Source: an uncultured Planctomycetota bacterium
Lineage (GTDB): Bacteria; Planctomycetota; Planctomycetia; Gemmatales; Gemmataceae
DNA length: 64,000 bases
NCBI GenBank assembly: GCA_963849325.1
Contig: CAWKHF010000003.1
Coordinates: forward strand, 64,001 to 128,000
Direction of reading: 5' to 3'
Shown here piece by piece: positions 28,490 through 31,120 of this stretch. Under the pieces are notes generated by a model. It saw only the letters and a list, made by a program, of their open reading frames with translations. It did not search any database and was not told where the DNA came from. The position numbers were made by a program, and so were the translations under genes. Every line of letters begins with the position of its first letter. Position 1 is the first letter of the stretch.

Positions 28490-28897
28490 CAGCGGCCCAG
28501 CGCACCGAGGAACGACGGCACGCGCTCGCCCAGGTTAAGGAGCAGTCCGACCTCCGGCAGCGGCTGCAGGCGCTGTCCGCCGAGAGCGCACCGCTCGCGG
28601 CGGCAATGGCGAGAGCCCGTGAGTTCGTCGCCGGCTGGGCCACGGTCGCCCAGATCCTGGACGCCGCCGAGGAGGACGAGCTGCGGCTCCTGTTGCAGCA
28701 CTTCGTCGAGGTGATCGAGCTGGCCCACGAGTCGGCCGACGGCAAGACGGGCACCTACGCGCTGCGGCTTTTCCCGGAGGTGCGGCCGCTCGACCCGCCG
28801 CACGGGCCGGAAAACGAAGGCGGGCCACCCGACCCGACATCCGGGGGGCGGCCCGCGTTAACCGAGGCCGTCGAAACTTGTGGCGACCAGCAAAAAG
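28490..28897 (+). pseudogene. C-terminal remnant of a probable large serine recombinase reading into the tRNA 3' end
   Basis: Coiled-coil then ELRLLLQHFVEVIEL, resembling recombinase C-termini; frame continues antisense over the tRNA (KAPRVGLEPTT); no catalytic N-terminus. Confidence 0.5.
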
Positions 28898-28935
28898 CTC
28901 CCCGAGTAGGACTCGAACCTACAACAAACCGGTTA

Positions 28936-29599
28936 CGTTTGCCCCCATGTTTCCATGGGGAACGGACTATCTCATCACCCCAGAGGGGTGCAGGGCGCTC
29001 GAGGCTGGGTTATTGGATGGGCTCCTCACCAGCTAGTCTCTGCACCTTCCCGGCTACTGATTGCCCTTCGCCGGGCTTGGCTCAGGATTGCCGCCACCCA
29101 AAGTGCTGCGGGTTCCCTGCTAGGCCAACCGTTTCAATTCCTTGAGTAAACAAGGAATCTGCAGGTCTTCCTCCGTGGCGTGGTAAAACGTCACCGTACT
29201 GGCTTTGGCCAGGTATTGCTGAATCAGCAATAACTCCGACCTTTTCACCACAGAGTAGGGGAGGATGAGATCGCATAGAGCCAATCATGCCTGTTTTCGA
29301 TAGACGCGGATGCGATAAGAAGGCCGCGTCGATCTCGGCCTTGGAAGCGGGCCTTTCGTGGAGTAGGCGATGACGTTGTCCACGAGGATGGCAACGACCT
29401 TCCGGTGCATGGCTTCGCTAATACTCTCAATCGTCACACGGCAACTCATGCCGCGTTCCGAATCTCGATGCACCGTCACGCAGCCTTCGCCATCAATAAT
29501 TCCCGCCAGCCAGGCAATGTCGGCAATACCCATCTCCCCTGCCTAGTTTAATTCACCCTGTTTTCCACTGGCCATTGCTGACCAGCGCTGCGATTCTTC
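28936..29599 (-). ncRNA. Group I intron (664 nt) between tRNA positions 35 and 36
   Basis: P1 exon GCUGU with IGS GCAGC (U.G at the splice site); P2 with GCAA loop; P3 CAGGGUG/CGCCCUG; Q AAUCCUGAGC; R GCAGAGACUA; S GAGAUAGUCC; P8; P9 with GAAA loop; terminal G at 28936. Confidence 0.95.
29120..29533 (-). CDS. Single-motif LAGLIDADG homing endonuclease, 137 codons, with an in-frame TGA at 29285-29287
   Basis: IAWLAGIIDGEGCV motif; same frame continues past the TGA as LALCDLILPYSVVKRSE...LKRLA*; AGGGGAG immediately upstream. Confidence 0.88.
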
Positions 29600-29688
29600 A
29601 CAGCCGGTTGCTCTACCATTGAGCTATCGGGGAAAATCAGACGAGGGTGTTGGCCGGGCAGATCCCATCCACACGCTCGCCCGCATAT

Positions 29689-29717
29689 GTTCTAAAACAA
29701 CTCCCGCAACTTCGCAA
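29689..29717 (-). promoter_or_regulatory. Possible sigma-70 promoter of tRNA-Asn
   Basis: TTGCGA-17 nt-TAGAAC about 55 nt upstream of the tRNA. Confidence 0.4.
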
Positions 29718-29773
29718 GTCTATTTTCGTGAATTCACCGAGGCGAAGCAGCCAGAGGGAGGTGCGGGAGGATC

Positions 29774-31120
29774 ATGACGGTTCGGGTGACGGTCATCGGG
29801 GCGGGACTGGCGGGACTGGCGGCGGCGGCGGCGCTGGCGGAACGCGGCTTCGAGGTGACAATGCTCGAAGCGCGAAACCGAGCCGGCGGCCGGGCCAGCT
29901 CCTTCGCCGACGCCGCCAGCGGACAACTGATCGATACCTGCCAGCACGTCAGCATGGGCTGTTGCACCAACTTCGCCCATTTCTGCCGCACGGTCGGCAT
30001 CGCGCACCTGCTCCAGCCTCAACCCGCCCTCTGGTTCGTGACGCCGGATCGGCGCAGGAGCCGCCTTGCCGCTGGTCCTCTGCCGGCCCCGCTGCACCTG
30101 GCAGGCAGTTTCCTGCGCGGCCATTATCTCACCCTGGCCGAGAAGATGCGCATCGCCTGGGGCCTGGCCTGTCTGCGGCGCAGGCCGATCGAGGACGATC
30201 CGCCTTTCCTCGACTGGCTGACGCGCCATCGACAGACGCCGCGCACCGTGACCCGGTTCTGGGGACTCGTGCTGACCAGCGCGCTCAACGAGACGCCCGA
30301 ACGCATCGGCCTCCGCTACGCGCGCAAGGTCTTCCTCGACGGATTCCTGGGCCATCGCCGAGGCTACGAGGTCCAACTACCGCGCGTGCCGCTCGGCCGA
30401 CTTTACGGCGAGGAGCTGCAAGCCTGGCTCAACCGTCATGGCGTTCGTCTCCGCATGGAGTGCGGCGCACGGCGATTGCGGTTGAACTCGGGACGGATCG
30501 AGGGTGTCGAACTGCGAAACGGCGAGAGGACGGTCGCCGATTGGTATATCGCGGCGGTGCCGTTCGACCGCCTGCTCGACCTGTTGCCAGCAGAGTTGAT
30601 CGAACGGGAACCCTACTTCAAGAACCTGCGGCGGCTGGAGACCTCGCCCATAACGAGCGTCCATCTCTGGTACGATCGACCGATCACGCGGCTGCCGCAT
30701 GCCGTGCTGGTCGATTGCACCGGCCACTGGCTCTTCAACCGTGGCGAGGCGGCCCCCGGCGAGTATTACGTCCAGGTGGTCGTCAGTGCCGCCCGGCAGT
30801 TCCGCGGGATGGGACATGCGGAGGTGCAACGTCTGGTCGTCGAAGAACTGGCCCGGCTGTTTCCGAAGGCGGCGACGGCGACGTTGCGACGCGCGCGCGT
30901 GGTGACCGAGCATGCCGCCACGTTCAGCGCGGTGCCGGGCGTCGATCGGTGGCGTCCGACCCAGGCATCGCCCCTGCCCAACCTGTTCGTCGCCGGCGAT
31001 TGGACGGCAACGGGCTGGCCGGCGACGATGGAAGGGGCCGTCCGCAGCGGCTACCTCGCCGCCGAAGTCGTGCTTGAGCGTTGCGGTCGAAAAGAACGTC
31101 TGCTCCAGCCGGACCTCTAG
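29774..31120 (+). CDS. hpnE: Hydroxysqualene dehydroxylase (hopanoid pathway)
   Basis: GAGLAG FAD motif, IDTCQHVSMGCC, EHAATF, AGDWTATGWPATMEGAVRSG. Confidence 0.85.
   Translation: MTVRVTVIGAGLAGLAAAAALAERGFEVTMLEARNRAGGRASSFADAASGQLIDTCQHVSMGCCTNFAHFCRTVGIAHLLQPQPALWFVTPDRRRSRLAAGPLPAPLHLAGSFLRGHYLTLAEKMRIAWGLACLRRRPIEDDPPFLDWLTRHRQTPRTVTRFWGLVLTSALNETPERIGLRYARKVFLDGFLGHRRGYEVQLPRVPLGRLYGEELQAWLNRHGVRLRMECGARRLRLNSGRIEGVELRNGERTVADWYIAAVPFDRLLDLLPAELIEREPYFKNLRRLETSPITSVHLWYDRPITRLPHAVLVDCTGHWLFNRGEAAPGEYYVQVVVSAARQFRGMGHAEVQRLVVEELARLFPKAATATLRRARVVTEHAATFSAVPGVDRWRPTQASPLPNLFVAGDWTATGWPATMEGAVRSGYLAAEVVLERCGRKERLLQPDL

Follow-up and report, generated by a model that had tools for sequence, protein, structure and literature searches.

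The window examined here, a stretch of 64,000 nucleotides (nt) from contig CAWKHF010000003.1 (positions 64,001 to 128,000 of the forward strand), carries on its minus strand a tRNA-Asn(GUU) gene that is cut in two within the anticodon. We consider it very probable that a mobile group I intron has inserted itself between U35 and U36 of this gene, a core tRNA gene of a Gemmataceae-like planctomycete. A single TGA disables the endonuclease gene of the intron, and therefore the intron is probably stranded by now, that is, it would splice but no longer home. By its layout, the intron is a composite of a ribozyme of ~234 nt and an endonuclease cassette of 430 nt. New are the host phylum, the family of the endonuclease and the position of the cassette.

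Read across the locus on the minus strand, the 5′ exon ends with ...AACCGGCTGT, the intron extends from GAAGAATCGCAGC to GGGGCAAACG, and the 3′ exon begins with TAACCGGTTTG..., the exon ends being GGCTGT and TAACCGG. When the exons (29633-29600 and 28935-28898) were joined by their coordinates, they formed a cloverleaf that ARAGORN recognised as tRNA-Asn(gtt). The Rfam model Intron_gpI (RF00028) matched 28943-29162 on the minus strand with 56.6 bits (E 1e-11 in the window, 3.1e-13 in the genome), which exceeds its gathering score of 50 bits. A sequence-only reading of this DNA had proposed that a group I intron interrupts a tRNA-Asn(GTT) at 35/36 and had offered a comparison of 28936-29599 with group I models as a check; the model match and the joined exons bear out the proposal. 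The splice-site features that it had described, a CTGT^TAA junction, an exon-terminal U paired to the G of GCAGC (29591-29587) and a final G of the intron, can each be read in the sequence. U29600 at position −1 stands opposite G29591, G28936 serves as ωG, and both hallmarks are invariant in nine copies of the element.

In its default mode, ARAGORN reported no tRNA in the 64-kb window. With introns allowed, as the sequence-only reading had suggested, the program called tRNA-Asn(gtt) i(35,664) at exactly 28898-29633. The intron mode is unspecific, with ~100 intron-containing calls in the 8.16-Mb genome, only two of which coincide with an RF00028 match. On account of these many calls we rejected it as a stand-alone test.

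The ribozyme structure was assessed in an alignment (A2) of nine of the 11 tRNA-Asn elements then mapped, leaving out the truncated L055 and L057, a duplicate of L056. After removal of the columns of the open reading frame (ORF), RNAalifold recovered the arms of the tRNA, P1, P2, the long-range P3, P4-P6, an extra helix, P8 and P9. A curated structure of 61 pairs including the P3/P7 pseudoknot is paired in 99.5% of the cells across the nine sequences. Changes on both sides occur in 20 of the 61 pairs, a value reached by none of 500 shuffles, and slid controls were paired in 30-45%. P7 and P4 are invariant across the alignment and thus uninformative on covariation either way. In P1, five of the six pairs are invariant; the sixth (29605 with 29586) is G-G in the window copy only. 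All pairings that had been claimed from sequence, namely P2, P3, P6, P7, P8 and P9, hold, as do those of P1, P4 and P5. The same applies to the additional GCTGG/CCAGC helix at 29033-29004 between P7 and the 3′ strand of P3 (P3′). This helix is genuine, with compensatory changes in four of the five outer pairs and a conserved internal loop, UGAGGA...CC.AUAA. It is foreign to the general Rfam model, in which it appears as an insertion of 34 nt.

Rfam placed P2 and P3 of the window copy inside the 3′ end of the ORF. We rejected this placement, as the upstream P3 strand (29560-29554) covaries with its partner. In two ORF-less copies from giant viral contigs (L129 and L131), Rfam itself aligned the strand homologous to 29560-29554 as P3. 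The model misplaces the two helices because the cassette splits the core, and this misplacement explains the modest RF00028 score. The ORF-less viral relatives reached 76.6 and 92.8 bits.

By its motif and its profile similarity, the ORF in the intron is a LAGLIDADG homing-endonuclease gene, now broken. It contains a single motif, LAGIIDGEG, and residues W8, L9, G11, I12, D14, G15, E16 and G17 are invariant in 18 sequences. The Pfam domain PF14528 (LAGLIDADG_3) was matched at E≤0.01 by 17 of the 18 aligned family members, at best with 4.4e-9. A collection of 5.8 billion proteins held 21 homologues, most of them exactly 137 amino acids (aa) long, uninterrupted and 53-70% identical, several with PF14528. 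The family profile matched I-CvuI (5a72_A; E 9.2e-5, residues 6-111) as well as I-AabMI and an I-DmoI/I-CreI chimera. The reading frame in the window is not intact, as it is interrupted by one in-frame TGA at codon 83 (29287-29285), where all 17 aligned homologues have Ala, Val or Ile. Comparison with the homologue in L048 gave a dN/dS of ~0.2 (0.294/1.42, with dS near saturation). Such a ratio suggests that the stop is probably recent. The ORF is present in a single copy in the genome.

Modelled in two copies, the closest intact homologue is consistent with a homodimer. The model scored 0.73 compared with 0.01 for the best control, with a pLDDT of at least 90 and at least 97% of contacts shared between runs, and its two chains meet at residues 3-16, the LAGLIDADG helix. 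Among proteins of solved structure, 20 of 30 same-chain pairs and one of 23 single chains attained that mark, and the score may simply echo solved I-CreI-type dimers retained by the prediction model. In a protein tree of 28 rows, the window sequence grouped with P0002, P0003, P0004, P0006 and L048 (support 86/99), and the acidobacterial copies fell outside this group; the bootstrap of this tree is not fully settled and its root is arbitrary. Broken ORFs, the fragments P0018, P0020 and P0022, the 82-aa piece of the window protein itself (P0005) and P0010 were left out of the tree.

The host is a Gemmataceae-like soil planctomycete. As had been supposed from the sequence, the genome is planctomycete-like: the nearest named relatives of the neighbouring hpnE gene are labelled 'Gemmataceae bacterium' (74-77% identity). 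The exons are contiguous in seven of ten genomes of the same genus, each time beside the same hpnE gene, and the joined exons are identical over 72 nt to an uninterrupted tRNA-Asn gene in 11 of 19 loci of relatives. A DNA search found no copy of the intron in any of 60 relatives. In the survey of Planctomycetota that the sequence-only reading had called for, the invariant-motif pattern of the intron family occurred in one of 401 genomes sampled from the phylum, namely the present one.

A further check proposed there, for another tRNA-Asn in the genome, turned up a second and intact tRNA-Asn(gtt) gene at G000:C12:838633-838706 (L132:1001-1074, minus strand). Of the earlier warning on annotation, the first half stands, since ARAGORN in default mode misses the split gene. 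The second half falls: with a second tRNA-Asn present, the genome would not appear to lack this tRNA. The C12 gene has a G.A mismatch in the anticodon stem and two G.U pairs in the acceptor stem, and the closest sequence in 36 relatives matches it at 88%. These features suggest an accessory or fast-evolving copy. Because the C12 copy is mismatched and without a match above 88% in the 36 relatives, the split gene is taken to be the conserved tRNA-Asn of this organism.

A scan of 28750-29800 revealed no sigma-70-like promoter sites. Terminator-like matches in the same region are uninformative because they include the T arm of the tRNA. A possible tRNA terminator, seen in a consensus scan only, is a G+C-rich hairpin with a T run behind it (28818-28836, minus strand), ~60 nt downstream of the tRNA. 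Elsewhere in the genome, a second group I intron resides in tRNA-Leu(UAA) (L002:1382-1688, equivalent to G000:C2:959701-960007, minus strand) at the classical 34/35 site. It is ORF-less, 218 nt long and scores 35.1 bits with RF00028, below the gathering score; its joined exons were recognised by ARAGORN as tRNA-Leu(taa). Further ARAGORN calls comprise a tRNA with the anticodon UUA ('Stop'), a tRNA-SeC(tca), four tRNA-Trp(cca) and two tRNAs with odd anticodon lengths; the coordinates listed with these unusual calls are G000:C2:189639-189710 and G000:C6:239940-240031.

Features of the split tRNA-Asn locus and its neighbour, in coordinates of the window
Feature	Position	Strand	Remarks
5′ exon, tRNA-Asn(GUU)	29600..29633	-	acceptor and D arms, anticodon stem/loop through U35; terminal CUGU
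Group I intron, 664 nt	28936..29599	-	first base G29599, last ωG28936; splits the tRNA between U35 and U36
3′ exon, tRNA-Asn	28898..28935	-	from U36: T arm, acceptor 3′ strand, discriminator G; CCA not encoded
P1	29587..29604	-	exon GCUGU (29604-29600) with guide GCAGC (29591-29587); U.G wobble at splice site
P2 hairpin	29569..29584	-	29584-29579 with 29574-29569; both-side changes in 5/6 pairs
P3 5′ strand, CAGGGUG	29554..29560	-	partner CGCCCUG at 28997-28991; 7 pairs, 100% paired, 3 compensatory
P3 3′ strand, CGCCCUG	28991..28997	-	pairs with 29560-29554
Endonuclease cassette, 430 nt, at J3/4-P4 boundary	29120..29549	-	exact piece skipped by ORF-less soil contig
LAGLIDADG homing-endonuclease ORF, 137 codons and TAG stop	29120..29533	-	in-frame TGA at codon 83 (29287-29285)
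P4	29083..29119	-	29119-29115 with 29087-29083; encloses P5 (29111-29110 with 29092-29091 and a distal hairpin)
P6	29042..29081	-	29081-29079 with 29044-29042; 29075-29070 with 29054-29049; 3/6 distal pairs compensatory
P7 pseudoknot	28965..29038	-	GACUA (29038-29034) with UAGUC (28969-28965); invariant in 9/9
Extra helix ('P7.1-like') between P7 and P3′	29004..29033	-	GCUGG/CCAGC (29033-29029 with 29008-29004) and inner GG/CC
P8 hairpin	28976..28990	-	3/6 pairs compensatory
P9 hairpin	28943..28960	-	CCCCAUG, GAAA loop, CAUGGGG
hpnE (hydroxysqualene dehydroxylase)	29774..31120	+	divergent; synteny marker; names and Pfam

The same element is found elsewhere. Protein-alignment scans yielded 25 loci from species-representative genomes and, from metagenomes, the best 80 of 344. 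At 13 of these loci (L023, L024, L048-L057 and L059) the ORF is at least 47% identical to that in the window. ARAGORN called tRNA-Asn(gtt) at ten of the 13, with exon ends CTGT and TAACC, a G as the last base of the intron and intron lengths of 665-714 nt. L049 and L051 have the same 3′ junction, and L054 ends 66 nt past the ORF, too early to show its junction. This makes twelve additional loci with the element at this site, most of which have exons of the Acidobacteriota type; L023 and L024 are metagenome-assembled genomes (MAGs) of Acidobacteriota/Pyrinomonadaceae. The exons of L048 are almost identical to those of the window, and its T-stem variant also occurs in the relative G022. In L055, L056/L057 and L059 the endonuclease ORF is broken by frameshifts or stops, and the ribozyme parts are still well paired. 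Decay of the gene before decay of the ribozyme seems common in this family.

More distant relatives of the endonuclease (25-33% identical) were encountered in L027-L036, L076, L077, L080 and L097-L100, mostly Acidobacteriota MAGs and soil contigs. Their introns measure ~625-660 nt. By eye, the host gene is a tRNA-Arg(UCU) interrupted at 34/35, with exon ends CCUU and CUAAG and an intron-terminal G; ARAGORN calls at these loci were inconsistent. The ORF starts there directly after P3 and GGUGAAU, which is the same cassette position in a different tRNA.

Two viral contigs of 436 and 470 kb contain the ORF-less introns mentioned above (L129:682-983 and L131:712-983), both at tRNA-Asn 35/36 and within tRNA arrays. 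L129 possesses the extra helix between P7 and P3′, L131 does not. A third candidate of the viral scan, L130, was discarded as a chance pattern match inside a protein gene. A 2014 review located all phage introns then known in protein-coding genes and described group I introns as not known in Archaea. Two Woesearchaeota loci of our scans (L038:1-3317 and L039:1-1435) are archaeal 23S rRNA genes that match RF00028 (in L038 with 50.1 and 34.4 bits) and carry a LAGLIDADG homologue. Later work is said to have reported group I introns in Archaea.

The limits of the cassette are set by ORF-less forms. One contig from a soil DNA run joins 29119 directly to 29550 and skips exactly 430 nt, and two further contigs end at 29119 and then continue as the reverse complement of ...CAGGGTGAATT. 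Yet another soil-run contig joins 28935 to 29600 and represents the intronless allele, as expected from the relatives. As the contig joints skip 29120-29549, the ORF-less relatives read P3-AAUU-P4. The tRNA-Asn introns of the viral contigs L129 and L131 have the same layout, and Rfam names their P3, J3/4 and P4 likewise. Since forms without 29120-29549 exist, the endonuclease gene is a discrete piece of 430 nt at the boundary between J3/4 and P4. A possible stem, CUAGG (29546-29542) with CCUAG (29124-29120), would close the cassette; its 3′ strand contains the stop codon.

It is possible, although we are doubtful, that the intron was ancestrally ORF-bearing and that the ORF-less forms arose by later precise deletions of the cassette rather than the cassette by a later insertion. 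The ORF-less soil contigs are close to the window ribozyme (4-8 differences in 172-220 nt), whereas protein identity within the ORF clade is 61-71%, and this contrast speaks for deletion. It is countered by the canonical P3-AAUU-P4 arrangement of ORF-less copies in hosts as distant as those of the giant viral contigs, and by the general Rfam model, which expects this very layout.

Several observations weigh against our interpretation of the locus as a whole. With 20.5 bits, the window protein stays below the cut-off of 22.5 for PF14528, and the possible cassette-closing stem is conserved without covariation in alignment A2. The P10 of 3-4 bp seen in other copies is lost in the window copy, which has AAUC in place of the GGUU/AACC of L048. 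The intron starts with G and the eight other copies with A, and the outer pair of P1 is the G-G mentioned above. The second tRNA-Asn gene may have relaxed selection for splicing. Public sequencing runs, none of which contains more than 0.13 of the words of the stretch, gave no sign of a spliced product in this organism. The contigs of 90% likeness assembled from such runs (X1 and X3 from DNA, X2 and X7 from RNA) derive from relatives only, and stretches without cover in them carry no meaning. Since the exons do not differ within the genus, a joined form could not be attributed to this genome.

Read together, these points could describe a dead relic, i.e. a pseudogene whose ribozyme no longer splices, in a cell that relies on the tRNA-Asn at G000:C12:838633-838706. 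The broken endonuclease gene, the lost P10 and the backup tRNA-Asn(gtt) would fit such a history, as would five private changes of the ribozyme at otherwise invariant non-ORF columns, the most of all nine copies (0-4 in the others). The decayed ORFs of L055, L056/L057 and L059 demonstrate that the family does decay. Nevertheless, we regard a dead relic as unlikely. The exons match the uninterrupted gene of the relatives at 72 of 72 positions, and all scored helices of the window copy are intact apart from the outermost P1 pair. All five private changes are located in junctions or near the ends and none within the scored helices (P1-P9). Moreover, the presumed backup gene itself looks accessory, with its G.A mismatch, its two G.U pairs and no match above 88% in the 36 relatives.

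A second alternative leaves the gene functional: if the TGA were an assembly error, read through or recoded, the endonuclease would still be made and the intron would still be mobile. The stop is the lone defect of an ORF that is otherwise kept by purifying selection (dN/dS ~0.2), and the genome does encode a tRNA-SeC. However, the Ala, Val or Ile of all 17 homologues at codon 83 is two base changes away from TGA, none of them has Cys or Sec at this position, and other copies of the gene are broken too. A selenocysteine insertion sequence (SECIS) was considered and rejected, since a SECIS-like hairpin is absent: over the 66 nt that begin with the TGA, folding is on a par with that of shuffles (z −0.09). 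Continued production of the enzyme therefore strikes us as quite improbable. We favour a stranded intron, and judged by its sequence, the intron is likely to be competent for splicing.

From the anatomy of the locus and the chemistry of group I introns we infer how the element would have worked. The gene would be transcribed as a pre-tRNA of ~736 nt, in which the ribozyme would fold through P1 (GCUGU/GCAGC, with the U.G pair at the splice site), P2-P9 and the P3/P7 pseudoknot. Free guanosine would attack after U35, ωG28936 would then take the same site, and ligation of the exons would release mature tRNA-Asn. By homology to I-CreI and I-CvuI, the single-motif endonuclease of 137 aa probably acted as a homodimer. 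Its target would be the DNA of the near-palindromic intronless anticodon arm (AACCGG CTGTTAA CCGGTT), and after cleavage the intron would be copied in by repair. Around U35, 14 of 19 positions of this arm fit a palindrome. A near-palindromic target is established for I-CreI and is expected likewise for the 137-aa enzyme.

We tentatively raise the further idea that the LAGLIDADG cassette is an independently mobile module, which would target the J3/4-P4 boundary of compact tRNA introns and whose enzyme would exploit the palindromes of anticodon arms. Its insertion site would then lie in the ribozyme core and not in a peripheral loop. The cassette might be tolerated in the core because its own closing stem, which includes the stop codon, may insulate it. 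If true, both half-sites would change together whenever the host tRNA changes. The idea would also account for the occurrence of enzymes of 25-33% identity at this position in acidobacterial introns of the tRNA-Arg(UCU) type and for the crossing of the Asn element between Acidobacteriota and Gemmataceae.

Default tRNA finders skip the conserved tRNA-Asn of this genome. Such genes would be recovered by pipelines like that of Williams 2020 (10.1101/2020.01.27.920355), in which a group I model is combined with a tRNA search that tolerates introns. The class of tRNA-Asn introns gains a LAGLIDADG-bearing form, and ORF-plus and ORF-less members differ by one exact piece of 430 nt. The position of the cassette in the core is unusual, and the element is common to two soil phyla. 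The locus is also a snapshot of the homing cycle, with uninterrupted alleles at the same locus in sister species and an endonuclease gene that has only just been disabled. In practical terms, a homodimeric meganuclease of 137 aa aimed at a tRNA anticodon arm, as the model suggests, would be small and easily assayed.

The sequence-only reading had listed tRNA-Leu(UAA), fMet, Ile(CAU) and Arg(CCU) as the classical sites of bacterial tRNA introns and had described these introns as compact and mostly ORF-less. The four settings stand as listed and are named in Williams 2020; the compact, ORF-less picture does not extend to the present intron, which carries a LAGLIDADG gene. The text of this preprint (bioRxiv, 10.1101/2020.01.27.920355) names the four classical settings and speaks of 17 new ones, without using the word 'Asn', and according to it the introns of Leu(UAA) 34/35, fMet, Ile(CAU) and Arg(CCU) are marked as IC3 in the intron database. 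Our intron lies between positions 4 and 5 of the anticodon loop (CUGU/UAA), with U at −1 and ωg; under the naming rule of the preprint its name would be 'Asn.4Ug'. A literature search that covered sources other than subscription journals found no paper naming the tRNA-Asn 35/36 site, including in Patescibacteria. Within the same coverage, which likewise ended short of the supplements of Williams 2020, it found no LAGLIDADG gene in a bacterial tRNA intron.

With the classical bacterial tRNA introns, the tRNA-Asn intron has in common the insertion into the anticodon loop, a compact core and the U.G wobble in P1. The 218-nt intron of tRNA-Leu(UAA) in the same genome has a similar core (GAGCCAA...GAAGGUG.AGAGACU). 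In contrast, the classical introns occupy other tRNAs and other positions in the loop, and they are without the extra helix between P7 and P3′ and the 430-nt ORF cassette. Another bacterial tRNA intron has an endonuclease that reportedly belongs to the PD-(D/E)xK family, i.e. a family different from LAGLIDADG. Going by its title in the references of PMC3984707, that intron resembles ours in encoding a homing endonuclease directed against the anticodon region, and differs in its host tRNA, which is not tRNA-Asn.

Among enzymes, the closest parallels are I-CreI and I-CvuI, homodimeric single-motif LAGLIDADG proteins from group I introns in 23S rRNA. The enzyme of the tRNA-Asn intron is shorter (137 aa compared with a chain of 172 residues), its host is a tRNA rather than an rRNA intron, and its copy in the window bears a stop codon. 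Shared with them are the single motif and the profile match and, as far as the homodimer model of the intact homologue can tell, a motif helix placed at the interface.

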